Assembly (NCBI GenBank): GCA_003990765.1
Contig: RBNJ01000361.1
Coordinates: 1 to 32,245 of the forward strand
Length of the DNA: 32,245 bases
Source: Jimgerdemannia flammicorona
Taxonomy: Eukaryota
Direction of reading: 5' to 3'
The notes below the pieces were generated by a model, which saw nothing but the letters and a program-made list of their open reading frames with translations, was not told where the DNA came from and searched no databases. How positions within the stretch are numbered: position 1 is the first letter of the stretch; every line of letters begins with the position of its first letter. Both the position numbers and the translations under genes were made by a program. Shown piece by piece: positions 2,941 through 30,435 of the stretch.

Positions 2941-4294
2941 TGTGACATACCAAAAATATAGCACCTGAATTATACCTTAGCCAGATAATGTGAAAAATTA
3001 GTAACTTAGCCAGATGATATGAACATATAGCATAGTAACCAGACACAGCAACCATTGCTATGGAAAAGTATATAAATAGCCAGACTACTAGACAAGGTAT
3101 ATCTGTGCAGGACCTGCACACCTGTGCCAACCTGCACACTTGTGTTGGATCTGTACAACTTGCTATAAGTACCAAATCTACAGTTAGCCACATAGCAACC
3201 AGATAGTAACCAACTTGTATAAATTATCCCAGAGACAAGAGTAAATAAACCTCAGTCTGAAATACAAACCAAAGAAGCCTCTAAAGATTGAGCATTGGTC
3301 CCCTTTCTACTCTGGTTCACTTTCTGATATAAAGCTGATTTTGCTGTGAAGAACTTTGCCACCTTTGGAATTATTGGTAAGCTTGCCAGACTAAGCCTGA
3401 AGAATCTGAGTTTGCCACCCAAGTTCAAGGAAGAACTTTGCCACCATTTCTAAGTTATCTGCATTCTCAGAAAGCCTAAGAGAAAGCCGCCTTACTCAAG
3501 GCAGTTTCTAATGCAACTTTGCAGTAAATCTGTTCATGCAAATGAAGCCAGTCTTTGACGTAACTTTGCCAAGAGACCCTTTCTCAAAAAGCCACCAGTT
3601 GTTTATATTCCCAGTTGAAGCCGCTGATTCAGGAAGAATCCATGACATCTGAGTTATCCATGTTATCTGAGTTATTATTCCCAGAAGAACCTGATTTGGA
3701 AGAACTCATGCCATCTGAGTTATATCCCAGTTGAAGCTGCTGATTCAGGAAGAATCCATGACATCTGTTATTCATTGTTCTCAGTAAACCCAAGAAGAAT
3801 CTGACACCAGTATAATTCCCAGTAAAAAGGACTCTGCCAAATTACCAGACTGCTCTGAATAAGAAACTTGTCCCACTACACAAGACCATTACCCAGAAAT
3901 TACATAAGGAACCCACCGCACTACACAGAGATCATCATGTAGAAATCACATAAGGAGAACTGCTAAATTGCCAGACCATCATGCATAAGGAGATCGTCAT
4001 GCTACACAGAAATCACCCACTACTCAAGAAGGAAACTGTTTGCACTACATATGAAATTCCACCAATTCCCAGTTGACCCATGAAGGAAACCTATTCACAA
4101 ATCGCTGCTACACCCAGAGAACCATCCCAATTAGGAAATTGATATACAAATTGCTCACAGATATCCAGATTGACTATTATACCACTAAACACTAAAAATA
4201 TTTTATTGCTTTTAATAAAGTAACTGGGGGCTCAAGCCAAACTACACCAACCCCCAACCTTGTAATTTGCCTCCATTGAGTCAGGCACATTATA
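2941..4294 (+). repeat. 5' LTR (1354 bp)
   Basis: Direct repeat of 11793-13193. Starts TGTGACATAC and ends CAGGCACATTATA (decayed CACGTTACA), followed by the PBS. Confidence 0.95.
3069..3078 (+). promoter_or_regulatory. Putative LTR TATA box
   Basis: TATATAAATA ~130 bp into the LTR. A TATAAATA core is present at the equivalent position in all four LTR copies. Confidence 0.5.
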
Positions 4295-4296
4295 TT

Positions 4297-4314
4297 TGTG
4301 GGCTCAACTGGGAA
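4297..4314 (+). other. Primer-binding site, tRNA-Pro-like
   Basis: TGTGGGCTCAACTGGGAA, 2 nt after the LTR, matches the tRNA-Pro PBS TGGGGGCTCGTCCGGGAT at 13/18 positions. Two of the mismatches are CpG-type transitions. Confidence 0.6.
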
Positions 4315-4850
4315 GATTTCAAAATTGACATAACTTTTCAGCTCACAAGAACCCACAGTCAAACTGGATATATTTAATACAACACCAATCTCTATCACTA
4401 CAGAAGAACCAGTTACATATTACCAGTATCTGGACAGGAAGAGAAGTAATTACCTCAAGACTTATCAATTATCCAGCATCAGAAGGATCTCAACCAGAAC
4501 CAGAAGCCAGTACAGCCCAAAATCTCCAACCAGATCAACCAGACAATACAGGTGGCCCTGTTGAAGATTTTGAAGAACTTACACAAGAAGATCTTATTAC
4601 ACAAGCCCAAGATCTTACAGCCAGACACTCCATACTAGTCCCATCAATCTCACCAATAGAACCTTTATCACAAGCCCTTGAAGAATTGGAAGTAGCTCCT
4701 ACAAGAATACCTACACTCATTTCACTTCATCCAAGGTCCAGAACACCATCCTCAGGATACCCAAGTACCCCCATCTCCAGTGACAGCTCAGAAAGCAAAT
4801 CAGAATCAGAATCTAGACCAGAACCAGAATTAGAAGAAAGTGATGATGAA

Positions 4851-5774
4851 ATGGCCACCTCCTTGCCAACCTTTACAAGATATCCAGAGGAAGACCCCAG
4901 AGAATTCCTTGATGGAATTGAAGGAATTGCAGCCCTGAGGAACCTTTCAGATGAAAGAAAAATTGCCATCTACAAGGCCCAGCTCAGAGAACCAGCCAGA
5001 GGAATTTTCCACTGAACAGCAAATGACCCAAATTCAGAACTGGCAAGACAGATATAAGCAGCACTATCTTATGAGCTAGAATATGTGGCCATGGTCCACT
5101 GGCTCATTGAAAAGTATACAGGAAACAAAACCCACCACAAGGCACAAGAATCTATTATGAGGATGAAGATGAATCTTGGAGAATCACTCAGAGCCTTCTT
5201 CACAAGAATCCAGAAGAGAATGTATGCTGTCAGGTTCAATGCTACCAACCAGGACATCATAGGTCCAATGACCTTCATGAATGGAATTTCTCCAAACATT
5301 GCTCAGCATATCCACACCCTAGACATCAGAAGGTCTGAAGAGCAAGTAGATGCAGCCCAAGGATTCTTTGATGTCAAACAAGAAACTACCTAGAGTGATT
5401 ATGACAAAAAAGAAGATAAAGAAGACATCCTGGTCAAAGCCCTACAAGGACTCCTTCAAAGACAGAAAAGATCTGAAGAAAGAAGACCAGCCAAAGAAGG
5501 AAAGAAGAATAGAAGTGAAATCCAAGACCTTAGTTCCAAGTTGGACTAATTGGTTGGACAGATTGAAAAACTCACCATACATGAAAATCAGAGCTACCAA
5601 GACAACAGAGAATACCTACAGCAGAGGAGCCGAGGTTATCCACTAAGAGATAACAGGAATTACCAGCAAGAAGAAAGAAGATACTCTGTCCAAGACAGAG
5701 CCCAAGTCCAATGCTTCCACTATGGACAATTCAGACACTATGCCACTGAATGTGACAACAAGAGAAGTGACTGA
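4851..5774 (+). pseudogene. gag: gag (degenerate); the frame is also open ~170 codons upstream of the ATG
   Basis: MATSLPTFTRYPEEDPREFLDGIEG capsid N-terminal pattern, Q/GESLRAF MHR-like segment, and a decayed CCHC knuckle CFHYGQFRHYATEC. In-frame stops. Confidence 0.85.
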
Positions 5775-6349
5775 AGGAACTCAGAATCATCAAACTGAAG
5801 GAATGACACTCAGTACAAAAAGACTGAAGCTCATCCTGTTGAAGATTTTGAGGAAGTAAGCAACAGTGAAGACTACAGTAACCTAGACTTATACCTAACC
5901 AAGATTACTACTCAGAAAACAGTCTATTCAGCAGAGAAAAGGAAGTGACCTATAGGAAGACCATCCAGAAATATCAGCAGAAGAATCATCCAAGAGGAAG
6001 ATAAAGAACATAAAGAGGAACAAGTAGAAACACCTTCCTAAACTCCTTTACCTTTTGTCTCCAAGACAAATGAGCTACCATCAGAGGATGAAGAAATGGA
6101 ATAAGAAGAATGGGAACCTGCTGCTTCAAAGCCCAAGAAGAAGTACACCCCAAAGACCATGCCTAGAGACATCTACAATGAAGCCTGGCAGAAGATTCAA
6201 GAGGTCAAGATGGAAGTCCCTCTCCTGCAGTTCCTGTAACTGACACCAGCTGGAGTTCAAAAAAAATTGCTGAGAACCACCAGGTCTAGCACTGGCCAAG
6301 TTCTAATACCACAGCAAGAACTAGTTCCCATCCCTGTCCAAGCAGCTGA

Positions 6350-6730
6350 AAGATATGTCAGCACCTACCTATATGGAGATATTGGAGGACAAAAGGCGAA
6401 AATCCTCATAGACACAGGAGCAGCTGTCTGTATCATTGCTAAACAGTTCCTGGACACCCTCCAATGGCCCATTGATGGACCATCCAACCTCAGCATCATA
6501 GTAGCAGATGGAGTCTGAACTCAACCCCTTTGAGAAGTATGAAATATCACCATCTCCCTTGGACACATTCAGTTCTCCATCCTGAAAGCTGTTGTCACTG
6601 AAGCTATCACCTATAACATAATTCTTGGCACCAACTGGATGAAGGAAATGAATGCAGTTGTTGATATTGGTCAATAGGTACTCAAGTTTGACTACTGAGG
6701 CAAGAAGTATAGAGTTAAGATGACCAGCTA
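6350..6730 (+). pseudogene. pol: Retropepsin aspartic protease (pol, degenerate)
   Basis: ILIDTGAAVCII active site (D at 6410) and downstream YNIILGTNWM; several TGA/TAG stops. Confidence 0.9.
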
Positions 6731-8030
6731 TGAGCAATCGAAGAAGAAGAAGGTCACTATTTAGGAGGAATATACCAGTAGTGTAGAATCTACCACAGAA
6801 GAAGAGGAAGAATCTGAAGATGGAAATGATCCCAGACTCAATCCCTAAATTAATCTGGTGGATGACAGACCAGAAGACAATGTGTGGGCCAAGAACACCA
6901 TCCCTATCACCATTGGAGCCATTGTAGGAGAAATCAAAAGATGTCCTATCTGCCTCAAGAGATACAAGTGTCCCAAGCATTCCTTCAAGATCATTTGGAA
7001 AAGGAATTCGCCTGGTACAGCCTGCCCTGAGTGCTGAAATAAGAAGAAAAAATGCAGACATGCTCCAGAAACATCTGCAGCTGAAGCTGCAGAAGTGCAA
7101 GCAATTTGGGGACAAGAATCATCTGAGGGAGAAGAAGTTTCTGACCAAGAAGTCCCTGACCAAGAAGTACCTGAAGAGGAAGAAGTCCCCAAACTCATCC
7201 CCTGGGATGACCCTCACTGGACACTATTTGAAGATACATAATGACCCTTGGAATATGGAAGAAGGACCCAGCACAATTACCATTATTCCCAAGAAAGAAA
7301 CTCACTAAGAAAAGACCTTTTGGCTAGGAAGATGTCCACACCAAATGGTCTTCCACTCTTCCTGAGACTACTGCTATCAGTGTTATCTACTAGACCAACA
7401 GGAGAGACAGAGACCCCAGAGACCAGAACCTCTGAACACAGTTGCACAGTCAACTACCTTCCAAGAAGTTACTACTAAGTTGCAAAGCCAATTCAGAGGA
7501 CAAGACCTCTTCACCTGGACAGAAGTATATCCCTTATCTACTCTTTCACCAACTTATGACCAAGATGGGTACCAATTCCTGAGATAATAAGAGATCAATA
7601 ACCAGGAACATCATTTCCAAGCAATGGGATATTGCAACCATAGAAGACACCCAGATTGCCAAGACTGCAGGCATCAGAAGATCCATCTCAGTCATGATGT
7701 TACAATCCCACTTTGAAGAGAGGAGATAACTGAAGCCAGATCCAAAAAAACCAGACCAAAAAGCCAGGAAGAAGAACCCTCAAGATCTAAGATTTAGAAG
7801 AAGACTTCCTAGCTCTCATCAGATATACAATCTGCCAGAAATGAGTGAAAGATGCCACCAACTTCATGAAAGCCCTAGACCCTACAGGAAGAAGAAGAAT
7901 CAACTATCTCCAAGACCCCTCTACTGGAGCCAGGTGGCCACACCTCAACCTCAGAGTCTAGAGGCTCTCTGCCAGTAGAGCCTCAGCCCAAGGACAGGCT
8001 GAACTTAGCAAGGATGTTACCCAGTATGCC

Positions 8031-8426
8031 ATGCTACATCCAAAGGCCAAACTCCCAACCAAAGCACACCCAGAGGATGTAGGATATGATCTTTACAGTC
8101 TGGAGAATGAATCCATTAAGCCTGGAAAAACATTCATGATCAGAACAGGACTAGCCATACAACTACCCCAAGGAGCTTACATCCAATTGACCTCAAGGTC
8201 TGGACTTACCAGACGAGGAATAACCATGGAAGGAGGAATCATTGACCCAGGATATATAGGTGACATCAAGGTCATTCTACACAACAGTAGTACAGAATGG
8301 CACTGAATCATCAGAGGACAGAAGATTGCTCAAGCAGTCTTCATGAAGGTCAAGACCCCACAATTACAAGAAGTCTCCAAACTAACTGAAGGAACAAGAC
8401 AAGCCAAAGGATTTGGGAGCTCAGAC
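8031..8426 (+). pseudogene. dut: dUTPase domain within the retrotransposon pol
   Basis: All five motifs in one frame: VGYDL, SRSG, GGIIDPGYIG, KIAQ, RQAKGFGSS. One internal TGA (8304-8306). Confidence 0.93.
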
Positions 8427-8859
8427 AAGAAGGAAGTACATCAACTTCAAGTCAACCACCTCAGGAGGAATGTTCCCCAGCAAGTGTACCACCAACCAGA
8501 CAAACTGCACAAGAATCTCATTCTGGAGCCTGGAGAACAAACTATCTTCGAAATCTTTGCACTACCCAACCCCAGGAATCTTTTCTTCAAACCCAATGAA
8601 GATATCCCACACTTGGATATAGAAGGACACATATTCCCTGACAAGATGAACCTGGTGCACTCCCAAGCAACCAACCAAAGTTGGGAAACCATCATCTTGC
8701 CAAAAGGAACCATCATAGGATACCTGGTGCCTTTTCTCAACCAAACTCATAGGGAAGTTTATGAACTAAACCTATCAGGAAATGGCAAAAGGTCCCAGAA
8801 GAAAGAAAAGGCCCCTCTGCGACCCAGGAGACAGTGAAGCCTTCCACCAACATTGGAGA

Positions 8860-10185
8860 AGAATTGACACCCCAGCAGTAGCAACAACTAGTAGAACTTC
8901 TCAACAACTATCAAGATATCTTCACCACTGATTATGGCAATCTGCCATATAACCCATCATATCACTATAGCATAAATACAGGAAATGCAACACCCATCCA
9001 GCAGAAACCTTATAGAATACCCCATCACTTAAAAACATTCGAAAAGGAGCACATTCAAGAACTCTTAGACAATGAAGTCATCCGACCTTCAACCAGCCCC
9101 TGGGCCAGCCCTATACTTATTGTACCAAAGAAAGGAGGATGGAGACTCTGTGTAGATTACAGGAAACTCAATTCAGTCACAGAAAAAGATGCCTATCCTT
9201 TGCCCAGAATTGATGACCTTTTTGATCAGTTACAGGATGCCAGATACTTTAGCAGTATGTATCTTTTCACAGGATTCTATGAGATCCCCATAGACCCCAA
9301 AGACATTCAAAAGACAGCCTTCCTTGCTTTAGGAAAACTGTTTGAATACCTCTGAATGCCTTTTGGACTTTGCAATGCACCCCCCACCTTTCAGAGGATG
9401 ATGAATTCAGTCTATGCCCTCTTGATCCACTACTGCCTGATTGTATTCATGGACAATTCCAACATCTATTCAGTAAATTTCGAAGAACACCTGCACTACC
9501 TAGAAGAATTCTTCAAGCTCACCTGCAAGAACCACTTGAGACTGAATACAAGAAATGCTACTTTAGGAAACAGAAATTCAAATTCCTTGGATTCATGATT
9601 TCGAAAGAAGGAACCCATGCAGATCTAAAGAAAACCAAGAAGATCAATAATTGGCCAGTACCCAAGACCCTGAAGGAAACACTATCATTCCTGATGCTAG
9701 TATCCTACTATAGAAGATTTATCAAGAACTTTGCCCAAATTGCTGCCCCAATCCAGATCCTTCTCAAAAAAGGAGTATCATTCAAATAGACAGAATCACA
9801 AGAAACAGCCTTCAAAGAACTCAAGAACTATATGACTACAGTACCAATCCTTGTGCACCCCAATCTACAGAAGCCATTCATCTTGTATACAGATGCTTCC
9901 AAAGATGGCCTAGGAGTGGTTCTAGCCCAAGAAGGACCTGACCAACAACACTATGTAATAGCTTATATAAGCTGAGCTACCAATCAGCAGCAGATGAACT
10001 ATGGTAGCACCAAACTGGAATGCCTTGCAGTCATATGGGTGGTCACCCTGTTCAAGCATTACCTCATCAGAAAAAGGTTCACTCTGATCACAGATCATGC
10101 AGCCCTCAAATGGCTATTCAACTACAAAGAACCCACTGGAATCCTAGCCTGCTAGATCCTTATCCTTCAGGATTACAATATCTCA
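8860..10185 (+). pseudogene. pol: Reverse transcriptase and RNase H (degenerate)
   Basis: SPWASPILIVPKK, RLCVDYRKLN, YPLPRIDDL, MPFGLCNAPPTFQR, FMDN (decayed catalytic FMDD), LYTDAS, LECLAVIW, TDHAALKWL. Stops and frameshifts present. Confidence 0.95.
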
Positions 10186-10334
10186 CAACAATGTTGATAT
10201 ACTTTCCTGCCAACCCCAATGAACCAGAAAAAGAGTGTCCTGAGGAACTACACTCTAAAGGAAGCTCCTCAGACCATCAAGGTACAAGAAGCAGGGACAG
10301 GTAAATATAGAAGAGAAGCTGTAAACAATACTCC

Positions 10335-11253
10335 AACATTGGCCCAACCTCAGAACACAAGTCCAGGACATACTCAAGAAATGTGACACCTGCCAGAAGT
10401 ACCAAGAAAGAAAGAACTACTAAGCACCACTTCAACCAATCACACCACTAGACAACATCTTCAGAGATGGGGAGTAGATATAATTGGACCCCTACCAGTT
10501 ATGCCAAGAAGAAACAAATATATTCTTGTATTTGTAGAACATCTGACAAAGTGGCCTGAGGCTTTTCTAATGGATATTGCAGATGTCTTAACCATTGTGG
10601 GTCTTCTCTATAGACTCACACTCAGATATAGACCCCTGGAAGAACTTATCTCTGACCGAGACACAGAATTTATCAACAACATAATCACAAGTTATGCCCA
10701 AATTCACAATATCCACCTCAAATAGACCACATCATACCACTCTCAGATCAATGGCATGACAGAAAGAATGAACTAGACTATCAAGAAAGAACTTACCTAA
10801 GTCAATCCTACCAACTGGGACCTCTGCTTATCTGAGATCCTATGGGAAATTTGAAATACCCCTACTGCCTCCACCAAACAAAAGCCATTCGAAATGATGT
10901 TTGCTAAGAAAACCAGATAAGAATCTCAGAGATCTCCTCAAGAAGACAGAACAGTTACATAATCAGGCCCAAGTTCAGATTACCAAAGCCCAAGAAAGAC
11001 AAAAGAAGTACTATGATCAGAAACAGAAGAACCAGAAGATCAAGATTGGAGATAAAGTACTGGTTTGGAGGAGCATGATTGAAATGAATTTTGCCACCAA
11101 ATTGGAGTTCAAATGGGAAGGACCTATCTTGTGCACAATATCAGAGGAATCAGCATCTATTTAAGAAGCATGGATAGATGAACCCTGAAGGCACCAGTAT
11201 ACATCAATCACCTCAAGATATACCTTTCCCCACATCATGAATCAGAGAGTTGA
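10335..11253 (+). pseudogene. pol: Integrase (degenerate; the HH part of the zinc finger appears deleted; GPY/F motif; no chromodomain)
   Basis: WPNLRTQVQDILKKCDTC, WGVDIIGPLP, VEHLTKWPEAF, LISDRDTEF, NGMTERMN, KIGDKVLV, KWEGPY. Confidence 0.92.
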
Positions 11254-11752
11254 TAACCACCTTCAGACTCTTGTCCTCAGCTCATTTCAATCACTGCCAG
11301 TTCCTCTACCCCAATTCCAGGAAGTCAATGGAAACACTCTCCAGAAGATCCAGATTCATCAAGAGAATCTTGTCCTGACCAGACAATTGCTACAGGTCCA
11401 CCAACTTTAGGCTCATTATGCAATTGGAGAACAATTGCAGAACCTCCCAGTCCCTGAACAGATATACATCAGAAACACTACAGGACTATCAAGAAGAGAT
11501 GTCACTGCTACAGACAGACTTTACACCCTTTATAAATGAAACCCTACAGCCCTGTTACAAGTACAATTCTCCTGATATGATGCATGAGGAATGAACCTAG
11601 CCACCTACCTGAGCATCATCAATGCTGTCGAAATTCTATTCCCAGAAGAAGAAGAAGAACCCTTGGAATGGAGCAACTATGATACAGATGATGAAGATGA
11701 TGGAACAGATATTGATGCAGAAGATGCTTACCCACACTGAGATGATGACTAA
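11237..11752 (+). pseudogene. Extra ORF3 (~171 aa, unknown function, acidic C-terminus) between integrase and PPT
   Basis: The ATG overlaps the integrase end by 17 nt. A single frame runs to TAA 11750-11752 with five internal stops (4 TGA, 1 TAG) and no frameshift: MNQRVDNHLQTLVL...AHYAIGEQL...TGLSRRDVTATDRLYTLYK...FPEEEEEPLEWSNYDTDDEDD. Confidence 0.6.
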
Positions 11753-11779
11753 AGGACAGTCTGAGGACAGACCATCCTT

Positions 11780-11792
11780 TAGTAGGGGCTGA
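11780..11792 (+). other. Polypurine tract
   Basis: TAGTAGGGGCTGA immediately before the TG of the 3' LTR. Confidence 0.65.
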
Positions 11793-13193
11793 TGTGATAT
11801 ACCAAAAATGTATTACCCGAATTATACCTTAGCCAGATGATGTGAACAATTAGTAACTTAGCCAGATGATGTGAACAATTAGTAATTTAGCCAGATGATG
11901 TGAACATACAGCATAGTAATCAGACACAGTAACCATTGCTGTAGAAAAGTGTATAAATAGCCAGACTACCAGACAAGGTATATCTGTACAGGACCTGCAC
12001 ACCTGTGCTGGACCTGCACACTTGTGCTAGACCTGCACAACTTGCCATAAGTAGCAAATCTATAGTTAGCCACATAGCAACCAGATAGTAATCAACTTGA
12101 TTAAATTACTTCAGAGATAAGAGTGAATAAACCTCAGTCCAAAATACAAACCAAAGAAGTCTCTAAAGATTGAGTATGTATTGGTCCCCTTTCCACTCTG
12201 GTCTACTTTCTGATATAAAGCTGATTTTGCTGCCAAGTTCAAGTAATGAACTTCACCCCCTTTGGAATTATTGGTATGCTTGCCAGACTAAGCCTGAAGA
12301 ATCCGAGTTTGTCACCCAAGTTCAAGGAAGAACTTTACTGCCATTTCTAAGTTATCTGCATTCCCAGAAAGCCTAAGAGAAAGCTGCCTTACTCAAGCCA
12401 GTTTCTGATGCAACTTCATAGTGAATTCATTCATACAAATGAAGCCAGTCTTTGATGTAACTTTGCCAAGAGACCCTTTTCCAAAAAGCCGCCAGTTGTT
12501 CATATTCCCAGTTGAAGCTGCTGATTCAGGAAGAATCCGCAACATCTGAGTTATCCATGCTATCTGAGTTATTATTCCCAGAAGAACCCGATTCAGAAGT
12601 ACTCACACCATCTGAATTATTTCCCAGTTGAAGCCACCAATTCAGGAGGAATCCATGATATCTGAGTTATTCGTTGTTCTCAGTGAACCCAAGAAGAATC
12701 TGCCGCCAGTATAATTCCCAGTAAGAAGGATTCCACCAAATTACCAGACCACTCTGCATAAGGAACTCATCCCACTATACAAGACCGTTACCCAGAAATC
12801 CCATAAGGAATCCACTGTGCTACACAGAGATCGTCATGCAGAAATCACATAAGGAGAACCGCTAAATTGCCAGACTGTCACACACAAGGAGATTGTCGCA
12901 CTACACAGAAATCACCTGCTACTCAAGAAGGAAACTGCTCATGCTACACACGAAATTCCACCAATTTCCAGTTGACCCAAGAAGGAAACCCATTCACAAA
13001 TTGCCACTACACCCAGAGAACCATCCCAATTAGGAAATTGACATACAAATCACTTGTAGATATCCAGATTGACTATTATACCACTAAACACCAAGAATAT
13101 TTTGTTGCTTTTAACAAAGTAACTGGGGGCTCAAGTTAAATTACACCAACCCCCAATCTTGTAATTTGCCTCCATTGAGTCAGGCATGTTACA
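11793..13193 (+). repeat. 3' LTR (1401 bp)
   Basis: TGTGATATAC...CAGGCATGTTACA. It has one more 29-bp U3 repeat than the 5' LTR and is followed by TSD ATAC. Confidence 0.95.
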
Positions 13194-13240
13194 ATACTTA
13201 TATAGTTGTATATCTACTACATCATAAAATTAAATCCATG

Positions 13241-13525
13241 ATCTGTATCTGGGTATTCTATTCCTGCTATATCTGGCCATATCTGTATCTGGGTGTTCTG
13301 TTCCTGCTGTATCTGGCTATATCTGTATCTGGGTGTTCTGTTCCTACTGTATCTAACTGTATCTATATCTGTATGTTCCGTTCCTGCTGTATCTGGCCAT
13401 ATCTGTATCTGGGTGTTCTGTTCTTGCTGAATCTGACTGTATCTGTATCTGGGTGTTCTGTTTCTGCTACATATATCTGACTGTATCCATACTGCATGTT
13501 CTGTTCCTGCTATGTCTGGCATCTG
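13241..13525. repeat. 40-bp minisatellite, ~7 units
   Basis: Consensus ATCTGTATCTGGGTGTTCTGTTCCTGCTGTATCTGGCCAT in register from 13241. Confidence 0.9.
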
Positions 13526-13732: not shown

Positions 13733-13980
13733 TTCAATCATATCATCCATATCATCCATCTCAATCATTTGTATTATCTGTCTCGATCATATTGCCTCAA
13801 TTGTCCATCTCAATCATTTGTATCATCTATCTCAATCATATCACCCATCATCCATCTCAATTATATTGTCCATCATCTATCTCAATCATATTATCTGTCT
13901 CAATCATTTGTATCATCTGGTTAATCTCAATTGTATCACTTCAATCATTTATATCATCTGTGGTATTGTCCATCTCAACC
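13733..13980. repeat. Degenerate ~21-bp tandem repeat (ATCTCAATCATwTk core)
   Basis: About ten recurrences of TCTCAATCAT/TCAATTAT with a 21-29 bp spacing. Confidence 0.7.
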
Positions 13981-13998
13981 ATATAGATATAATTCTAG

Positions 13999-15160
13999 AT
14001 TTTCTTACCTTGTACTGGAGGCTTTTTTACCAGCAGTAGAGAATTGTCAGCTTTCAATGCAATTCGATTCTTTGTGAACTAGTATATGCTGATATCTGTA
14101 TCAGTATAATCTGAAGAATTGCTGGAGAATACATCATGATTTCTGGAGAAATTCAATCAGAGAAAAAGAATATTTGAAGATACACCAAGGTGTTCAGCAT
14201 CCCCAAGATTCATGCACTTCAGCATTATGAAAAGCAGATTATGGATTTTGGAACACCAGACAACTTTGATAAAGAATACACTGAGCATCAACATATTACT
14301 GATGCAAACAACCATATCTTCACATCAATAAGTACAATTATATTTCTCAGATGATTCAATATAAGTAGTGAAAAATTACTCTGAAGATGAAGCAGTAATA
14401 TCTGGAGAGTTTGAAACTCTCTAACTCTATTGAAGATATATGCCAGCACTATTCTTTGGGCTCTCAGACAAAAAACTCTCCAATATTTATATCATCAGCA
14501 GATATTTAATATAGTGTAAATCTGGAGCTATATATTTGAAACTTTCTTCACAATCAACTATTTCAAGATGGGAAAGAGAGCCAACATAGAGTAAAGAAGT
14601 GCAATCTTCTAGAGCTGAAAAATCTACAGATATTTAATTTACTATTTAAGCAATAATTATTTATGTTATTATTATTATATAGATTTCAGTTTTTCAGTTA
14701 TTGAACCTTTATATGCCTACTATCTTTGGAGGTAATACAGTCACCCATCATATATGCCAATGCACCTCCAGTTTTCATGAACAGCCACAATATGACTGAA
14801 TAGTACTGAATTAGAGAAAAATCTATTGATGTCTCTGACTTTAATATTGGACAATTGAAATTATTGTTTACATATGAGTATGAGAGTAAAATATTTTATC
14901 TTGCTGGTATTCAGCACTTTAAAATGCTCAGTATACATGATCCAGATACACATATGGTAATGTTAGAATGTACAGAATTATTTGAGGTTGTTCAAATTAG
15001 TAATATGATATATAATGTTCATTTGATTCTATATTTTGACAGTACTTCTACTGCAAGCAATGCTTTAAGGGGAAAAAAGAGATATTTATAGCTTTGAGAA
15101 ATATCTTCTTAATTGCTATAGTGATAGATATGCTTACTTCAAGTTCATAATATTGTAATG
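13999..15160 (+). pseudogene. Plavaka-type DNA transposase, 3' half (copy A), with intron 14630-14682
   Basis: SIPKIHALQHYEKQIMDFGTPDNFDKEYTEHQH and C-terminal CTSSFHEQPQYD...NVHLILYF...KYLLNCYSD. Colinear with copy B. Confidence 0.75.
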
Positions 15161-16306: not shown

Positions 16307-18585
16307 TTAAAGACTGTAAAATATCACAAATGCATTCCTGTCACTGTGGATATTTAGCAAGTATTTATCAAAACTATAACAATCTCTTTTCAGTAAAAAC
16401 ATCTCTTGCACTCTGCTGAGTTTCAAAAAGTAGAATAAGGTGAACTTGACACACAATAGTACTAACTTCAATTACTTCATAGCTGTTTGTATGTTCCAGC
16501 ATATATATGCCAGTCTCTTCATCTTGCACTTGAAGTGTTTGGAAGTGTTGAATATAGGCAAGATAGTCCATTAAAAAAAAAAAAAAAAAAAAAAAAATAT
16601 AGGCAAGATAGTGAGTGTTCCCATCACTATTATCAAATTTGAACAGCAATTGAAGCAGACCAAAGCTGAAATCAGAGATCTTAGGCTTTCTCTCACTGTG
16701 CTCAATCTGAGAATTGAATAATACCACCCAATCATAATATGGTTGATTGTAGAAAGATGAGTTGTATCAGCAAATATACTTGATGATTTCTTTATCCCAA
16801 GGATCAGCAGAATGCAGAGTGAGTGTTTTGAATAAGATAACCTAAATGAATATAATATAAAATAACATTTTAATATCTATTTTTAAACAAAAGATGTTTT
16901 AAAATTATCAGTATCTGAGAGTTATTGAGCTCTGGAAGATTTCGCATTTTCACCTGATATCTGCTTCCTTCTCCTTCTGGATACAACTGATTATGAAGAA
17001 AAACTCAAAAATTGACCTCCAGATGATTTAAATCAAATTTCTGGCTTGCAGCAGATATTTCCATTGGACAACATGGAATTCTGGATCCCAAGAGACATTG
17101 ATGTTGATTTTGATTTATAATAGAGATATCAGCTCCAGTCTGTATATTTATAAACTTCAGAAAATTGTACTTAGCATAAATTGCTGATCGACAGTGAATA
17201 TATTTTAGCATCTAAGGTTCTGAATCATGCTTGTTAGTTGCCTTATAGGGTAGGTGTGTGTCTGCAATATGTTGATATTCAGTAGATTCTGTATCAAAGT
17301 TGCCAGGAGTTCCAAATTCTCATATATTCTCTATATAATACTGCATTGTATGTATCTTTGGAATATTTGCAGACCAACCATCAATCATCTGAAATTCATT
17401 CTTAAGCTCATCAAATTCAGCTAAAAGTCTATCAGCATCTGCCAGAGATCTCTCTTCTTGAATTGGTAATGAGATCAACATAAACCAGTTCACAAAAGTA
17501 CAGATAGCTCTAATGGCTTTTAAGGCATTCTTATCATCAAAGAATCCTCAGGAATATGGTAAAAAGATCTGAATTAGTTATGGAAAATATAATATTAATA
17601 TAAATTCAGAGTCTATAATTATTGAAAATAAATAAAATAAAATAATTTATCTTCATAATTTGAGCATATTCACTTACAGTTATATTTTGCATATTACAAA
17701 TACCCTTTGGAAAGATCTTGAGACCTGTAAATTGAGGAACTAGTGCAATTCACCTATCCAGTTCATCCAGATATCTGTTTGCCTCTCAGGGAGCATAAAT
17801 ATGATAAACCAGATCTTCAAACCATTACATTAGATACATCCAAATATCCTTTTTAAGCTGATACAATAGGTCAGACATAATTGTTGAATTGATACTGCTC
17901 CTTGGGACATTTCAGAGTAAATTCTAAGTAAATAAATATATTAATCAGTATTTATTATAATAATTAATATTTAAAATAACTTTTTAAATAATTTATAAAT
18001 ATACCTTTTGATATATTAAACCATATTTTTGACAAAAAGAATCTCCAGATATACCATCTTCTTGTAATTTTGTTACATGTTGATAAATCTTTGATATTTG
18101 ATTTACTGTTTGGTCTTCATATTTTGTCTACAGATTACCAAATTGTTGTTTTGTTGCCAGACACCAAGGATAAGTATAGTTCTGACATATAAGAGTCAGT
18201 TTGTAGGATTCTGGATAATCCACCTGAAAGGCCATGAGAACTGGAAAACACCAGTGAGTTTTGCCATCAGGGCTTTTCCATAAACATCCTCTAAAATTAT
18301 AGTTAAGAGAACAATTTTAATATTATAATTTAGATAAATAATTATATTAGTAGTAATTAAGTTAATATTACCTTTTTTATATATCATCTAGACATTTAAA
18401 TATTTTCTTCATACATTTATGATATAAGGACTTCTTGGTCTGTGCAAAGTATTCAGTATGTTCTTCTCTTCCAGTAGGCTTGAGAGATAGAAAATATCTG
18501 ATAAGAACATAGTCAGGCTGTTGATAATTTTGATGTAGCCTTCTAGGAAGATTTCCAATACTGAGATATAATGGATAGCATGTTA
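16307..18585 (-). pseudogene. Plavaka-type DNA transposase (copy B), 5'-truncated, four AT-rich introns (18291-18371, 17924-18004, 17569-17650, 16842-16914)
   Basis: YPLYLSIGNLP, LYHKCM, DGKTHWCFPVLMAFQVDYPE, DLLYQLKK, VPQFTGLKIFPKG, NIPKIHTMQYY..EFGTPGNFDTESTEYQH. Removing the introns restores the frame at the junctions checked. Confidence 0.85.
16551..16612 (+). mobile_element. Ultra-short TPRT (LINE-mediated) insertion: CCATT plus poly(A), with a 17-bp TSD
   Basis: AATATAGGCAAGATAGT at 16551-16567 and 16596-16612 flanks CCATT-A23. Confidence 0.9.
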
Positions 18586-20052
18586 CTAACTCATCCCAAT
18601 CCTCCTCCAGCACATCCTACAATTTAGCATCTCCTCTAGCCCCCCCTAGTACCCCATACTGAGGGCACTCCTTCTCTGCCATCTCTGCATCATCTATAAT
18701 GACACTCAGCTCTGTGCCTTCCCCCCCCTCCTGGGGTCCCTTCTGGTACTACTTCCTTCTCTCCTGCCCAGGCACTCACTCTCAATCTAGCTTCTTCAGT
18801 AGTGGTCTCTCCAGCTGCCCCACCCCCTAACTTAGCCAACAGATTCTTCTGAATGTGCCTCCCCTGCACTCTCTCCTAGGCTGCCTGATCCATCACACCT
18901 TCTTACTATTTACAATCTCTACAACCATCTTGGCCTCAAACTCCTTCCAGGCCAATCTCCTCCTCTCTATAGCTTTAGCTAGATCCTCTAATACCTTTAG
19001 CAAGTCCTCTTCTTCCTCCAGTATCCCTTTCACTCTTGAGACCTTGCACTCCACAGGTCCTCATTTGAGAACTACCAGCCAGTCCCTCACCTTCTCTATA
19101 TTCTCCTTGTCTATCAGCCACACCCTGATGTCCATATCTCCTGTCCTTAATTCTGTACCTTCTCAGATCCAAAACCCAATATCTATAATATTTCTATACT
19201 CCTTAATGACCTCTACAATCAACCCTCTGGCCATTTCCTTCAACACTATAGGAATATCCAGTACTGTCAGTTATACTACTCAGAGATCTCAGTATAAGCA
19301 CTGGATCATAGAGATCACTACCCCCCCTCTCTTCTTTATTGCTTTCAACAGTATATCCTCCTTCTCAAAGCCTATGTATCTCCACCCCTTCCAGACCCTT
19401 CAAAAACTTCACTAATGCTGCTCTCTTCACCTTCTGGATCAGAAGCCCTAGAATTATCCTTACCATTACTGCCAAGCCTTAGAAATATAATATGATAGTG
19501 AATTCTGACCTTAATTTCTTAAGTAATAGTGCTGTCACCAGGTCTGTTACACTATCTGTTAGATCTCTAGGCCTCATTCCCACCCCCTGTCCAGATCCAC
19601 CATCAACCATTACATTTGGATTTTTTTCCAGATTAGCAGTTTTCTTACTATTAGCAGTCCTGCTCCCCCAAGCCACTACTCCCCCAGCCCTGCTACTCTC
19701 ACCACTATGGGCCACTCTACTAGACCCTGCAGCCCTTGCCATCTCCTTGCCCTTCCTCAGTCTAGTCATCAGACAACCTCCCTTCACCTTGTCTGTGAAG
19801 CTTATCCTTTCAGTTCTCTATCCTCCAGCACTGCCTCCTCCTCTTCTATATCCTCCAGCCAGCAAGTTCCACTTGCTTCTCTCCAAGCCATGACTCCTCC
19901 CCATATACTGCCAGTCAAACACACTAAGGCTGCTCTGCCCAGTATATATCTCAGAATACTCATTAGTTGCTATATTACTAGTGCCTATTCTCCAAAAATG
20001 ATATCTTGAGTATTGCTAAAAGTTTATAACCTGAATATTACTAGAGAAAGGT
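18586..20052 (-). mobile_element. L1/Tx1-like LINE copy 2: 5' UTR plus most of ORF1, 3'-truncated and decayed
   Basis: Colinear with ORF1 at 28482-29900 (KNPNVMVDGGSGQGVGMRPRDL..LLLKKLRSEF vs KNPDVTAVGNSGLGVGTRPGDL..LLLKKSRSEF). 5' motif at ~20024-20050; the ATG has decayed to ATA at 19973. Confidence 0.9.
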
Positions 20053-20054
20053 CA

Positions 20055-23000
20055 TGGTTAAAATATGGATACTGTTGCTATTATAATAGTAGGCATGAAG
20101 TGAGCTTGTTTGCTAAGATAATCTATAAAGACAATAATTATATCTTTTTTATTCTTAGTTCAGAGTACTTATATAATGAAGTCTATAGAAATTTATTTCT
20201 AATTAGCAGATAGTACTAGAATAGAGTAGAGTAGTCTAGGTTTTGCTAGAGTTGAGGACTTGTTAGATTAGTAGACATTATAATAAGTAATGTAGGTCTT
20301 TAACTAATCTATCATATAGGGTTAAGAGAAGTTTTGGAAAATAACTTTATAGCATTTATCAAATCCTAGATGTCTAGCTATAGGGACATTATGATATTTG
20401 AATAGGTTAGTTCTTCAGAGGTCTCAGTTATTAGGAATATATAATTTATTCTTATAGTAGATAGTCTTATCCTTCAATTGGTATTGATAGTACCTAGAGT
20501 ATTTGTTGATATCATCACTATTCAGGATTTCTTGAAGTATTTAAGCTTATTTATCATTAGTGTATACTGGAATAATTTGTTTTATGATAGAATTGATATC
20601 CTGGGTGAGAGTTTGTATAACTTCTCTGATTAGTAGTCTAGAGATAGTATCATTAATAACATTTTTCTTACTAGAGTAAATAGTTAAAATTGGTAAGAAC
20701 TTTCATCTATTGAGCTTTCCTTTAGGAAAGGATAGCCTGGGTCTTAATATTGATCATTGATTTGTAGTCTGTTAATATGGTTAAATATACTTCTTTAAGA
20801 TATGACTGCTATTTAATCAGAGTATCTACAATGGCTAATATTTTCTTCTTGTGAGTAGTATAGTTGATTTCAGCATTATTGAACTTATAAGAAAAATAGG
20901 CCACAAGATGTCCTTCTTATATAAGTACTTTTGTAAGAGCTAGGTCAGAGATATTAGTATAATAGAACAAGATTCACTACTTGAAGTACTGAAGTAGTTA
21001 TCAGGATATCTTTTAAGGCTTAAAAAGCTATATCTTGTTTTAGTCTCTATTTAATGAGATTGTTGAAGTTCTTTTCTTACTTTACAGTTTAGAATTGTTT
21101 TTCTTTTTTACCATACTTAGTTAGTTGGATAAGTGTAATAGCAATTTTAACAAAGTTCCCAACAAATTATTTATAATAATTTACTAATATTAGAATTGAC
21201 TGAGAGTCTTTCAGCCTTTTGGGTCTAGACTATTTCTTAATTATGGAGATTTTTCTAGAATTTACTTTGATTCTATTAAGAGTAACAATATATTCAAGAA
21301 ATTGATTTTTCTTCAGAAGAAATCTATATTTGTAGAGTTTTATAAAGAGTTGGTTTTCTTGAAGGTTCAGAGGTACTAGTTTAAGATATTTAAGATATTT
21401 CTCTAGGGTTTTACTGAAGACTAGAATATCATCAATATAGATGATAACAAATTTGTCTAGATATAGGTATAAGATAGCATTCATTAGAGTCTGGAAGGTT
21501 ATAGGAGTATTAGTTAAGTCAAAGGCCATAACCAAGAACTCAAAATATCCATAGTGAGTTCAGAAGATAATTTTGTAAATATCTTCTTCTTTTATGGTAA
21601 TTTGCCAGTAGCTATTTGTAAATCAAAAGAGCTCATAAACTATAAATTAGTTAGCCTATCAAATATTTCATTAACTTGAGATAGTGGATAACAGTTCTTA
21701 ATAGTCTGCTCATTGAGGTCTCAGTAATTAATATATATTCAGAGGTCTTCTCCTTTCTTGAAGACAAAGAGAATTGGTATACCATGGTAATAAATTAGGT
21801 CTAATGAATTCTTGTTCTAGAAGTTCATCAATCTCTTTCATTAGTATATCAATTTCTCTAAGAGACATATGATAGATTGACTTGAAGGCTAGTTTAACAT
21901 CTGATAAGGTCTTGATTGTATAGTCAACTACTTATTTAGATGATAGGCCTTTCAGAAGTTTCTTTGAGAATATATCTTAAAATTTCTAGAGTAAGGGTCT
22001 GATATAACTATTAACTTTGGAAAAGTCTTCTTCAAAGTTCTCAGGTTCTCCTTTGGATAGATATATGGATATAATAAAGAGAGATCATTTCTTTGTTAAT
22101 TTCTTGAGTTATAGTTTATTATTATAAGTGATCTTTAGACTAAAGTTACTAGAGTTGAGTGGTTTTCTTTCATCTTATAGTTTGAAACTATAGTATTCTT
22201 TCTTAATGATCAAAGAATAATTCACCCAATCTATCATAAGGTTTTCTTAATTTAATCATAGTATCTCAAGAATAATTCTATTATCTAAGAGTGGTATAAT
22301 TTAGAAAGTTATATGTACTTGGTAGTTACCAATTCTGAAGAGTAGATTGCAGACTTCTTTGCTAATGATATGAGAGATTCTATTAGTAGTAGTAACTACT
22401 TATATTTGTTATACTAGAGAGATCAGAACTTTAAGTCTGTTGGCTGTTTCTTTATTAATAAAATTGCCTGAGGCACCACTGTCTATTACAATTTTAATAA
22501 AGGCTCAATTAATAAAAGCTTGTAGAGTAAGCAGTTTATCTAATCTAATAGTAGTGATTTCAGTTATAAGAGACTTTCTTCTATTGGCTCTTTATTGGGC
22601 TAACTCATTGATATAAGAGAGGTAATTATCAATTATTTAGAAAGAGTACATTCTAATGTTATGAGAGCATTAGCTGTTAGATACAAATCCATCTTTGATC
22701 TTTCTGTAGAATTGTTTCTCCTTATTTATAGTAGGTTGGGCTGGAGCTTTGGTTGATGAGCTAAATTCTTTGAATCCTCAGATGGTAGGTAGTAGTTCAG
22801 AGACTTTCTTAATAGTCAGAGTAGATTTGATTTTCTCAAATAGGATCTGGATAATATAGTAACTAATAGGGATCTTAAATAGTGTCCAACTATAGTTCCT
22901 GATGAGAACAATAATTTTATCAGTATAATCTTCATCAATGACTTCTTCTTTTACTAAGAGTTCTTTTAATTCTAGACTGCTGCAATAATATATCCTTCTA

Positions 23001-25332
23001 ATATATCTTTCAGGAATTTGAATGCTGATTCTTATATAGACTTACTTGACTTCTCAGTTAGAAACTTTAGCTTCTTTAGCTATATATAGATTATATCTGA
23101 CTACTTTTGACTTTCTTTAGTAAGGGCTATAGCAGTTATCCTTAGCTTAACAAAGTCTAATATCTTGTTAGTCAGATTGTTAAGGTGGTATAGAGTAGTG
23201 ACAGTTACTCATATTATAGTTCAGAGTTTCTGCCTAGGATAGATACTGACCATATAGCCTATTTTTTGATAATTGAAGTATACTTTACTTTATTTGAGTT
23301 CATTTCTTTCTTCTTTAGTATATTTCTTGAAATACTTGACTGGGTGGATTCAGGATTTTGGAGTATCCAAGAAGTAGATATAAAGAGAGCTCTGAATGAT
23401 TTATGCTTGAGTTCTTCTTTCTTAGTTTATAATTTTTCCTTATTATGAAATTATTTTCAAAGCAGAATTGATTTAGCTATTAGAATTTGCTTGATCGTGA
23501 TCTTGATTCTAGCTAGGTACCACTGTTAGTGGTCACAACTAACTAGACATCCTTGTTCCCAGATCTTTCTTGTGAGCTATTCTGGTAGTATATTAAATAA
23601 ATAGTTTGTTTTTATACCATTTCATACTTCATTATTGGTAATATATCCTAGATCAATAGTATTTAGGAGTAACTCAAGTTTTGTATAGAAGGTTTCAAAT
23701 TTCTCCTTACTATATATATATATTAAATTTGAGATTACAGAGTTTGACTTGAGTTTTTGCAATCATAGTTTCATTATAATATTGGATAATTATGAGATAT
23801 TTGAGCCCAGAGGCTGTAGGGTGGTCTCCATATTCAGGGGTATTATTCACTATATTTTGAGCAATAACTATAGATCAGATGTCCTATGTGAGTGGTTTTT
23901 CAAAGAGATTTATCACTATTCTTCAATAGGTTCTTAGAAGAATATAACAACTTAGTAAATATAAACTATAATATTAGCAAAGAGTTGTTCAATAGTATAG
24001 TCTTAGTTATCTATTAGAAGTAGTACTCCAAATAAGTCAATTTAATCTAGATAGATTCAGATTGGATTCAGATTGAATTCCATCCAGATCAATTTGAATC
24101 AATCATTGTTTTAATTTCCAAATTAGATAATTAAATATTTACATCAATAACTTAATGAATAATTATCCAATTTTGATGATCTTGGTGTTATTTAAAAGCC
24201 CTTAATAAGGTATTTCTAATAATATTAAGAATATTCAAATTGAATCATATATTGTCAAGCTATTAATGAAAATATTCTTTTGAAGAAATTTCCAAAATCA
24301 CTAAGTCAAATAATTTTCAAAATTGGCAAGTCAGAGATTTTTTTTGATAACTAAACAATGCATGATCTAATTTCAATATTCTTAATATCATTAGAAAGGC
24401 CTTATTAAGTACATTCAAATGATACCAAGATTATCAAAATTGGATGATTATTCATCAAGTCATTGATGTAAACATTTAATTATCTAATTTAGAAATCAAA
24501 ACAATGGTTGATTCAAATCAATCCAGATGGAATTTGAATTCCATCTGAGTTGATCCAGATGGTATTTGAATCTAATCTGGATTAGTTCATTCAGAGTACT
24601 AGTTAGGAGACAATTAGCAACTTATTCATTAGTCTATTGATTGGCTTCAAAATTGATATCTACTATAATAATAAAGCTTTGAACTTCTTGTATAGTACTA
24701 TTAAAGGTAGGTAGACTCAGGCTTTTAGTTAACCAGATCTGTTTAACTAAGATAGTAATGATTGCTATCATTATAGCTATTTGGGCCATAATGTCTAGAA
24801 TTTGTTAATTTGCCATATTGTTTATAGGAGATAGTTGAACTACTAATAGTAGTATTATTGATACAATTTGAGATACTAGTATAGAGTGTGATAGTATTCT
24901 CTGAGTTTGTGTGAGTTGCTGAAGTAGCTGTTGTAGATCTGGTATAAGGGCCTAATAGATAACTGTCTATTGTTCTGTGGATATATTTTGTCCTAAGATA
25001 GGTATGTCTCCTTTAGCAGTATATATAGGATTAAATTTAGTAAAATACTCCTCCTCTTCTTCACTTTGGTCTTAGTATTACTGGGTTTATTCAGTGTCAA
25101 AGTAGATGATATCAGTTATATATCAGATTTTAGATAGACTTAATTCAAAAGCTCCTTCAAGATTGGGTCCTGGTTCTGGTTCAGTTTCAGGCTCAGATAG
25201 AGTTCTAGGTAGGCCTGCTTCTGACTCAGAGTCTAATTATTGATAAAGAGTTTCTCTGACTTCTTCTTTAAGGATATGGTAGGCCTTATATTCTGAAACT
25301 AATTGTATAGGGCAGTCTTAGTTCTGGTATAG
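20055..25332 (-). mobile_element. Second, older Ty3/gypsy element (gag-PR-RT-RH-IN), hypermutated, truncated in the integrase core, no LTR recognised
   Basis: gag from ATG 24816 (SLPTFN), decayed knuckle at 23236-23283, protease VIDSGASGNFI ~22455-22495, RT VMAFDLTNTPITFQ..YIDDILVFS (21230-21535), integrase ISIDFI..IVFIDYLSKQAHF (~20090-20200). No dUTPase seen. Confidence 0.88.
24021..24601. mobile_element. hAT-type fold-back MITE 2 (581 bp) inserted in the gypsy-2 gag
   Basis: Termini TAGTACTC...GAGTACTA as in MITE 1. 8-bp TSD ATTAGAAG/GTTAGGAG (two transitions). Long inverted arms (e.g. AATTAGATAATTAAA / TTTAATTATCTAATT). Confidence 0.85.
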
Positions 25333-26546: not shown

Positions 26547-26582
26547 ATAGTGATAGTCAGTAGAGTTGAGCCACTTAACTAT

Positions 26583-30404: not shown

Positions 30405-30435
30405 GTTGGGGTTGCCAATTCAACATTTTTTCAAT

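Follow-up and report, generated by a model that had tools for sequence, protein, structure and literature searches.

Gypsy-type long terminal repeat (LTR) retrotransposons with a dUTPase between protease (PR) and reverse transcriptase (RT) have been described several times. Gypsy families of Postia placenta carry a dUTPase at three positions, one of them between PR and RT, and the same paper refers to older reports of the domain from Phanerochaete and Tuber (Novikova et al. 2010, PMC2864245). In bdelloid rotifers, the Juno, Vesta and TelKA elements have it between PR and RT; Juno has an additional Zn knuckle, and all three are described as devoid of a chromodomain (Rodriguez et al. 2017, PMC5408684). 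The same position is given for giant gypsy elements of planarians in a further report (Arkhipova and Yushenova 2019, PMC6431247), and a preprint on Entomophthora describes dUTPase and retroviral protease Pfam domains as enriched in a Ty3-rich genome. Here we compare with these systems an element located at positions 2941-13193 of a stretch of contig RBNJ01000361.1 of Jimgerdemannia flammicorona (assembly GCA_003990765.1). We refer to the whole stretch of DNA that was analysed, 32,245 nucleotides, as the window. Features lie on the plus strand unless stated otherwise.

We observed that the element also has its dUTPase between PR and RT. A first-pass annotation, made from the sequence alone, had offered the virus-like repertoire as a novelty; since the PR-dUTPase-RT position is already published (PMC2864245, PMC5408684, PMC6431247), this claim finds no support. 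As a whole, the element probably represents the remains of a Ty3/gypsy (Metaviridae) LTR retrotransposon that no longer functions and that belongs to a little-sampled lineage, with the ancestral layout and mechanism that we propose below. The points that appear to be new, and that it has in common with a few environmental sequences, are a predicted second dUTPase-fold domain without catalytic motifs (referred to as X), conserved Cys motifs ahead of the dUTPase, and a putative layout in which ORF1 (gag-PR-dUTPase-X) is followed in the -1 frame by pol.

The ends of the element were determined by repeat search, global alignment and base reading. There was a single pair of long direct repeats, approximately 8.85-8.9 kb apart, which represents the two LTRs. 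The 5' LTR (2941-4294, 1354 bp) starts with TGTGA and ends with TTATA, and the 3' LTR (11793-13193, 1401 bp) starts with TGTGA and ends with GTTACA. Both begin with TG; CA closes the 3' LTR, and TA, a decayed form, closes the 5' LTR. The element is flanked by the target-site duplication (TSD) ATAC, found at 2937-2940 and at 13194-13197. Because the flanks read TATAC directly before the element and ATACT directly after it, a 5-bp duplication is excluded and only the 4-bp repeat remains. In the alignment of the two LTRs, 1201 columns matched, 153 were mismatched and 47 contained gaps (88.7% identity; Kimura two-parameter distance 0.127), and tandem repeats with periods of 29, 19 and 50 bp were present within them. 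A primer-binding-site (PBS)-like sequence, TGTGGGCTCAACTGGG (4297-4312), lies 2 nt past the 5' LTR, in the place where a PBS is expected. The purine-rich tract TAGTAGGGGCTGA (11780-11792), a putative polypurine tract (PPT), abuts the 3' LTR. No tRNA genes were found in the 32,245-nt window. These data bear out the first-pass annotation on the repeat-rich LTRs of about 1.4 kb, on the 4-bp TSD and, together with the PR-RT-RNase H-integrase order given below, on a single TSD-bounded Ty3/gypsy element.

Some further observations concern the LTRs and the PBS. A near copy of the PBS core, TGGGGGCTCAA, was present inside each main LTR (4225-4235 and 13124-13134). It occurs in every LTR of the family, approximately 70 nt before the 3' end, with minus-strand copies at 26652 and 25402. 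The CCCCCA that follows TGGGGGCTCAA could pair with it, and a U5-PBS structural element is possible. Two further LTRs of a related family, 66-80% identical to the main ones, lie head to tail on the minus strand at 25333-27979, 36 bp apart. The first, LTR_A (27979 to 26583), lies between two copies of ATAG, with the PBS-like sequence GTGGCTCAACTC 8 nt downstream, and is either a solo LTR or a truncated 5' LTR. CTAT precedes and follows the second, LTR_B (26546 to 25333), which in this respect resembles a solo LTR with a duplication of 4 bp. We considered whether the 36 bp between them could be a deleted internal region and rejected this, since a PPT is missing and LTR_B is bounded by CTAT/CTAT flanks of its own.

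The coding capacity was assessed by a Pfam run on 27 stop-free pieces of the element. On the plus strand the matches followed the order PR, dUTPase, RT, RNase H and integrase core, that is, the Ty3/gypsy order, with integrase after RT and the dUTPase between PR and RT. The RT (8882-9595) was matched by RVT_1, not by RVT_2, in two pieces (8882-9352 and 9356-9595), and its catalytic YxDD motif has decayed to FMDN. RNase H (9790-10152) was matched by RT_RNaseH_2 (E 6.8e-20) and RT_RNaseH (E 2.2e-15). The integrase (10198-11235) consists of a remnant of the zinc-binding region, a core (10456-10719; rve, E 7.3e-6, in the piece 10387-10722) and a GPY/F-like C-terminal region, which aligned to the gypsy polyprotein P0071 up to KWEGP at 11111 (E 2e-7). 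The gag leader and gag read-through, the Cys regions and the 3' tail all remained without a Pfam match.

The copy is a long-dead, decayed relic and not a working system. We counted 44 in-frame stops on the best reading path and, in three-frame translation, at least 4 unprogrammed frame changes (at about 7240, 7800, 9580 and 10790), with one further frame change within the zinc-binding region of the integrase. Between the LTRs there were 138 transitions and 15 transversions; 67 of the 138 transitions fell at CpG-derived sites and 42 at CpA/TpG sites. The observed/expected ratio of CpG was 0.07 in the element, 0.01 in the interval 20000-25000 and 0.36 in a long interspersed nuclear element (LINE) of the window. 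This depletion points to heavy CpG methylation of the host repeats rather than to classic repeat-induced point mutation (RIP) alone. RIP as the main mode of decay was considered and rejected, since CpG sites dominate and no TCG bias was present.

We wanted to place the RT among known sequences. A word-based search of a collection of 5.8 billion proteins gave 6,452 proteins at E<=1e-10, the best 120 of which were listed. One of them, P0005 (450 aa, RT and RNase H), was 67% identical to the RT of the window, while the rest of these 120 reached at most 49-50%. A dUTPase was carried by two of the 120 (P0078 and P0109). When compared with solved structures, P0005 was nearest to the RT of Ty3 (4ol8, E 6.3e-87), followed by caulimovirus (8r0s, 5.9e-58), foamy virus (about 1e-35) and gammaretrovirus (about 1e-28) enzymes. 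Through this relative the RT of the window is nearest to the Ty3 type, not to retroviral or copia RTs. We then built a maximum likelihood tree (quick search, LG+G4) of 111 rows, namely the window and 110 of 121 candidates, as 11 with fewer than 200 aligned residues were dropped. The window and P0005 formed a pair (SH-aLRT 100) on a long stem within an unresolved basal polytomy and joined no other supported group. P0078 and P0109 were found in a separate supported group of 21 rows, which includes a Rhizophagus protein, and P0192 was placed among plant and green-algal elements. The other rows that bear a dUTPase thus fall into two supported groups apart from the window, so that gypsy elements with this domain are dispersed over the RT tree. 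The distinct lineage proposed by the first-pass annotation thus found support, in that among 111 rows the RT pairs with P0005 only. It appears distinct from all else retrieved here. A gypsy lineage whose RT is at most 50% identical to anything named among the matches listed from this collection is present in this genome and also in a small number of environmental assemblies. In a look-up of sequencing runs, one DNA run from a soil metagenome contained a small part (0.10) of the words searched, and no RNA run was listed.

The dUTPase (8043-8423) was matched by PF00692 in two halves (piece 7962-8303, E 2.6e-19; piece 8307-8834, E 3e-5), with an in-frame TGA (8304-8306) that falls between motifs 3 and 4. 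It aligned end to end with the vaccinia dUTPase 2okd (E 2.5e-24), and all five motifs (GYDLYS, SRSGL, GGIIDPGY, KIAQ and RQAKGFGSS) had their counterparts there, which suggests a trimeric, all-beta dUTPase. The domain had been described as complete; this holds for its five motifs but not for its reading frame, which the TGA at 8304 interrupts. The word-based search with the dUTPase piece returned no match at E<=1e-5 among longer proteins, because relatives are rare. Further, we collected 27 proteins longer than a plain dUTPase from the RT and dUTPase-X searches, and 12 of them combined a dUTPase with retroelement domains. Their arrangements were PR-dUTPase-RT, dUTPase-PR, integrase-dUTPase, dUTPase-integrase and copia-type, so that in the proteins examined here the dUTPase occupies at least 5 different places in gypsy and copia polyproteins. 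Since there are several arrangements, we consider capture of a dUTPase to be recurrent among retroelements. It is a recurring and poorly understood event.

A second gypsy relic, older and much more decayed, with a dUTPase upstream of its RT lies on the minus strand of the window at 21116-23125 (27-29% GC). Pfam detected its dUTPase at 22781-23041 (E 1.2e-8) and RVT_1 at 21233-21559 (E 4.6e-11). This relic belongs to a different family, because its RT is approximately 36-40% identical to that of the main element; there are therefore two dUTPase-bearing gypsy families in one 32-kb window.

We analyzed the residues that follow the dUTPase by an exhaustive HMMER search, with the dUTPase and the 130 residues after it as query (P0001). 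The search gave 29,120 hits at E<=0.001, mostly cellular and viral dUTPases. Three top proteins reach into X: P0123 (226 aa, 76% identical), P0124 (1179 aa, with 39% identity across residues 18-290 of the query) and P0127 (312 aa, 36%). Approximately 100 residues after the dUTPase were thus conserved in four sequences, the window and these three proteins, and X is assigned to 8484-8741. An AlphaFold2 (AF2) model of P0127, based on a 4-row alignment, showed an all-beta domain, in which 10-residue blocks over residues 171-250 had a mean predicted local distance difference test (pLDDT) score of 76-90. In an exhaustive structural comparison with 48,161 chains, residues 170-255 of this model matched the Epstein-Barr virus (EBV) dUTPase 2we1_A (Z 11.5, root-mean-square deviation 2.1 over 84 residues) and ORF10 of murine herpesvirus 68 (MHV-68; 7byf_C, Z 9.2), and the next unrelated match had Z 5.8. 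The AF2 model of the corresponding stretch of the element itself (8439-8834, mean pLDDT 70.2) gave a similar picture: among the 50 matches listed, the first 22 all belonged to the dUTPase or dCTP-deaminase superfamily, with Z from 7.1 to 11.4, before a drop to 5.6 at rank 23. Every row among the matches listed by Foldseek for this model was a dUTPase. None of the five dUTPase motifs was recognisable in X. These models suggest that X is a dUTPase-fold domain that lacks the catalytic motifs.

Two dUTPase-fold barrels per chain are also a property of herpesviral proteins, namely EBV dUTPase (2we1), MHV-68 ORF10 (7byf) and human cytomegalovirus (HCMV) pp71 (8qdo), which were also the best structural matches of X (Z 11.5, 9.2 and 9.7, respectively). 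In the window, two such domains in one polypeptide are seen on predicted models only. The five motifs of the herpesviral enzyme are split over two domains that make up one active site, whereas the first domain of the window keeps all five and the second has none, and there is no detectable sequence relation to the herpesviral proteins. If the fold holds experimentally, this would be the second case, after herpesviruses, of a doubled dUTPase fold with loss of motifs in one half, and P0127, with its 312 aa, would be a simple protein of non-pathogenic origin for asking what dead barrels do.

The X domain seems to be specific to this lineage. From the end of the dUTPase match to the start of the RVT_1 match there are 233 codons in the window, compared with 94-124 residues in P0078, P0109 and P0192. 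A blastp search with the X part of P0124 against 303 collected proteins matched P0127, P0123 and P0273 only. Our searches of open-access full text, which did not extend to the supplementary tables of PMC2864245, turned up no retrotransposon reported to have a second domain of the dUTPase fold. The rotifer elements are young copies with no pseudo-dUTPase reported (PMC5408684), while the window copy is old and decayed.

Since the window consists of dense nested repeats (other LTRs, a second gypsy relic, a Plavaka relic and LINE fragments), and since two frame changes surround the Cys region, we asked whether the accessory block could be an artefact, produced by a nested insertion or by a captured host dUTPase fragment after integration of a standard gypsy element. 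We regard this as highly improbable. P0124 is an uninterrupted environmental ORF of 1179 aa with zf-CCHC, protease and dUTPase, in which gag, PR, Cys motifs, dUTPase and X follow each other, and it aligned to the gag, the frame-1 Cys region and the dUTPase-X part of the window. In P0127 and P0123 dUTPase and X are contiguous as well. Moreover, no repeat boundaries or TSDs flank the accessory block. Against sequences from the PDB, the dUTPase part of P0124 alone was matched.

The gag (4851-5771) comprises a capsid-like region and a decayed CCHC knuckle, CFHYGQFRHYATEC (5712-5753). It was 27% identical to residues 1-183 of P0124 (E 6e-14), and the alignment ends on the CCHC knuckle of P0124 (Pfam zf-CCHC). 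Upstream of it lies an open Ser/Pro/Glu-rich frame without ATG (4329-4850), either a leader or a decayed N-terminal extension. The open frame is 228 codons long (4329-5012), and its sole ATG is at 4851, right before the capsid-like part. The stretch before this ATG is of low complexity, has no Pfam match and has no counterpart in P0124. Hence the N-terminally extended gag frame of the first-pass annotation exists as an open frame of 228 codons, but its upstream part is free of ATG, without a family match and absent from P0124. The aspartic protease (6375-6674) was detected by Pfam (piece 6240-6515; gag-asp_proteas, E 2.5e-5; RVP, E 0.0049) and by tblastn with P0124, and has the active-site motif ILIDTGAA.

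Between the protease and the dUTPase we found all three Cys/His clusters that had been reported there. Cluster 1 (6942-7061, frame 0) reads CPIC..CPKH ... CPEC.(stop)..CRH, with one stop, and has no counterpart in P0124. Cluster 2 (7333-7383, frame 1) is GRCPH-x10-CYQC, where P0124 has GRCQH..CRAC, and cluster 3 (7633-7686, frame 1) is GYCNH..CQDC..H, where P0124 has GYCEC..CFYC..H. The frame-1 Cys region aligned to P0124 in BLASTP with E 9e-10 over 179 columns. The relative thus keeps clusters 2 and 3 but not cluster 1. The first-pass annotation had made its proposal dependent on conservation of the accessory segments among copies. In relatives, dUTPase-X (in P0123, P0124 and P0127) and two Cys motifs (in P0124) are kept, which supports the proposal, while cluster 1 is absent from P0124. 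The spacer, the 3' tail and the Cys region gave no blastp match among the 303 collected proteins, nor did the Cys-rich spacer of P0124 yield a usable match in the protein collection. Juno likewise has its zinc knuckle near the dUTPase, but there it follows the dUTPase (PMC5408684), whereas the Cys motifs of the window precede it.

The ORF1 frame (frame 0, stop at 8835-8837) and the pol frame (frame 2, the -1 frame) overlap at 8765-8837. The window and P0123 share the residue at which ORF1 stops, whereas in P0124 and P0127 it runs on for approximately 20 residues more. For both P0124 and P0005 the recorded contig measures 6,987 bp, which fits the two-ORF arrangement; most simply this is one and the same contig, which would be an intact two-ORF relative. 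A metagenome scan for this contig gave no more than an AT-rich dUTPase locus (L001) that is unrelated and lacks an RT, and nothing was found in a scan of viral contigs.

This layout resembles betaretroviral Gag-Pro (Mason-Pfizer monkey virus, MPMV, and mouse mammary tumour virus, MMTV), where the dUTPase is also translated with the protease upstream of a -1 change into RT-RNase H-integrase, and the MPMV dUTPase 2d4l_A matched the fold of the catalytic domain (Z 11.5). In betaretroviruses a further frameshift lies between gag and pro. The RT of the window is of Ty3 type, unlike theirs. Further, their dUTPase is N-terminal to PR (PMC2238898), whereas in the window the order is gag-PR-dUTPase in one frame.

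Behind the integrase, the same frame continues for approximately 165 codons to an acidic end (11236-11737), a part that had been taken for an ORF in the env position. Stops are present at 11408, 11537, 11573 and 11585, and the longest open stretch is 73 codons (11189-11407). No Pfam match was obtained at E<=10, including Chromo (PF00385). We interpret this region as a tail of the integrase and not as an env gene, because it is in the same frame, contains four stops, has at most 73 open codons and has no family match; no separate env ORF of the retroviral or errantiviral kind lies between pol and the 3' LTR. These findings bear on the idea of an errantivirus-like endogenous retrovirus that once had an env in its 3' region. 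The 4-bp TSD and the putatively tRNA-Pro-like PBS resemble those of some retroviruses and insect errantiviruses, and there are approximately 500 bp between integrase and PPT. However, the roughly 165 codons past the GPY/F-like region are all in the integrase frame with 73 open at the longest, the 3' region has no Pfam match, and the RT is nearest to Ty3 RT, far above retroviral RTs. We give such an origin almost no weight.

The tail could instead be a decayed chromodomain. In that case the element would be an ordinary chromovirus in a described fungal dUTPase-bearing chromoviral clade, such as the PosPlaTy3 families. The tail is in frame after the GPY/F-like end of the integrase, the usual place of a chromodomain, and TGA accounts for three of its four stops, which is what decay of TGG (Trp) codons would give. 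On the other side, no Chromo match was found in the tail at E<=10, a negative that is weak because the copy is decayed and carries four stops there, in a region that no intact relative covers. When compared in BLASTP with P0071, which bears a chromodomain, only the integrase part aligned. PF00385 was present in 2 of the 120 listed RT neighbours, neither of which groups with the window in the tree. The TSD of chromoviruses is typically 5 bp, compared with 4 bp here. The published fungal dUTPase-bearing gypsy elements came from a survey of chromodomain elements (PMC2864245), which speaks for a chromovirus. Weighing these points, we think that it is unlikely, although it deserves more weight than the other alternatives.

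The comparison with the elements concerned, PosPlaTy3-5 of Postia placenta, those of Phanerochaete chrysosporium and Tmt1 of Tuber melanosporum, leads in both directions. They share with the window element the gypsy LTR type, the dUTPase between PR and RT, the CCHC gag, and gag and pol as one or two ORFs (PMC2864245). They were placed in chromodomain-containing clades, whereas in the window element no chromodomain was detected, and their descriptions in the text on which this comparison is based mention neither a second dUTPase-fold domain nor a Cys-rich spacer (PMC2864245). Juno, Vesta and TelKA have in common with the window element the dUTPase between PR and RT, a GPY/F integrase end, which has no chromodomain in them and no detected one here, and modular accessories, and differ in that they often have a real ORF3, which is absent here (PMC5408684).

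Returning to the decayed Ty3/gypsy copy that we favour, we propose the following ancestral layout and mechanism. ORF1 would have encoded gag (a capsid-like part and one CCHC knuckle), aspartic protease, a spacer of approximately 380 residues whose Cys/His motifs were probably zinc-binding, a five-motif dUTPase and a catalytically dead dUTPase-fold domain. It would have ended after this second domain, with RT-RNase H-integrase in the -1 frame. As in established LTR retroelements, replication would have been primed by a tRNA at the PBS, the plus strand would have been primed from the PPT, and the integrase would have made cuts staggered by 4 bp. RT-RNase H-integrase would have been produced by -1 ribosomal frameshifting, and so protease and dUTPase may have been about as abundant as Gag, with RT and integrase less abundant. 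By analogy with non-primate lentiviruses, the dUTPase may have lowered dUTP near the reverse-transcription complex and thus, where cells had little dUTPase of their own, reduced uracil in the cDNA. The pseudo-dUTPase domain may, as a guess, have been a structural or regulatory partner of the catalytic one. The copy would later have been inactivated mostly by C-to-T decay at methylated CpG.

Several points weigh against parts of this proposal. The activity of the dUTPase and its benefit are assumed by analogy. No canonical slippery heptamer was found in the 8765-8837 overlap of this decayed copy, and -1 frameshifting is for this reason deduced from the geometry of the frames only. That P0124 and P0005 share one contig is deduced from the equal size of 6,987 bp. 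Cluster 1, the 3' tail and the gag leader are seen in one decayed copy only. For X, the Foldseek E-values are borderline (1e-3 to 1.6e-2), and only four sequences carry the domain, so that the alignment behind each AF2 model has just 4 rows (mean pLDDT of the models, 62.7 and 70.2). A comparison of X with the neighbouring catalytic dUTPase by hhalign was not significant (E 0.09, probability 0.6%), and an origin of X by internal duplication is therefore plausible but not demonstrated.

More tentatively, the element and its few environmental relatives may represent an undescribed, deep-branching Ty3/gypsy clade, a reading that we hold to be possible but put well behind that of a decayed copy from a little-sampled lineage. 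The hallmark of this clade would be the combination of a catalytic and a motif-less dUTPase barrel, in parallel to the two-domain dUTPases and dUTPase-related proteins of herpesviruses. This two-barrel module would be produced at Gag levels alongside the protease, before the -1 frameshift, with a pair of conserved CxH/CxxC zinc modules ahead of it, and the dead barrel would serve a non-enzymatic role in assembly, regulation or interaction with the host.

For annotation of this genome, the message is that the locus is a dead retrotransposon in a pile of repeats. Relics of Plavaka-type transposase are present at 16374-18616 on the minus strand and at 14810-15091 on the plus strand (PF18759 at 18380-18616, E 1.1e-10, and at 18131-18316, E 2.4e-7). 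The Plavaka family is mainly fungal, in keeping with a fungal host. An L1-like LINE occupies 28644-32245 on the plus strand (51-59% GC over 29001-32000, strongly G-skewed). It has an open ORF1 of 586 codons and a region for endonuclease and RT that a single stop and a single frame change interrupt; RVT_1 was matched, and the nearest database proteins are only 25-36% identical. A second LINE ORF1 fragment, 44-47% identical, lies at 18584-19811 on the minus strand. Finally, 4 bp past the 3' TSD, a 40-bp tandem array begins (13201-13520, approximately 5.7 copies, with a 120-bp higher-order period), and it is followed by a 25/49-bp tandem array at 13734-13893.

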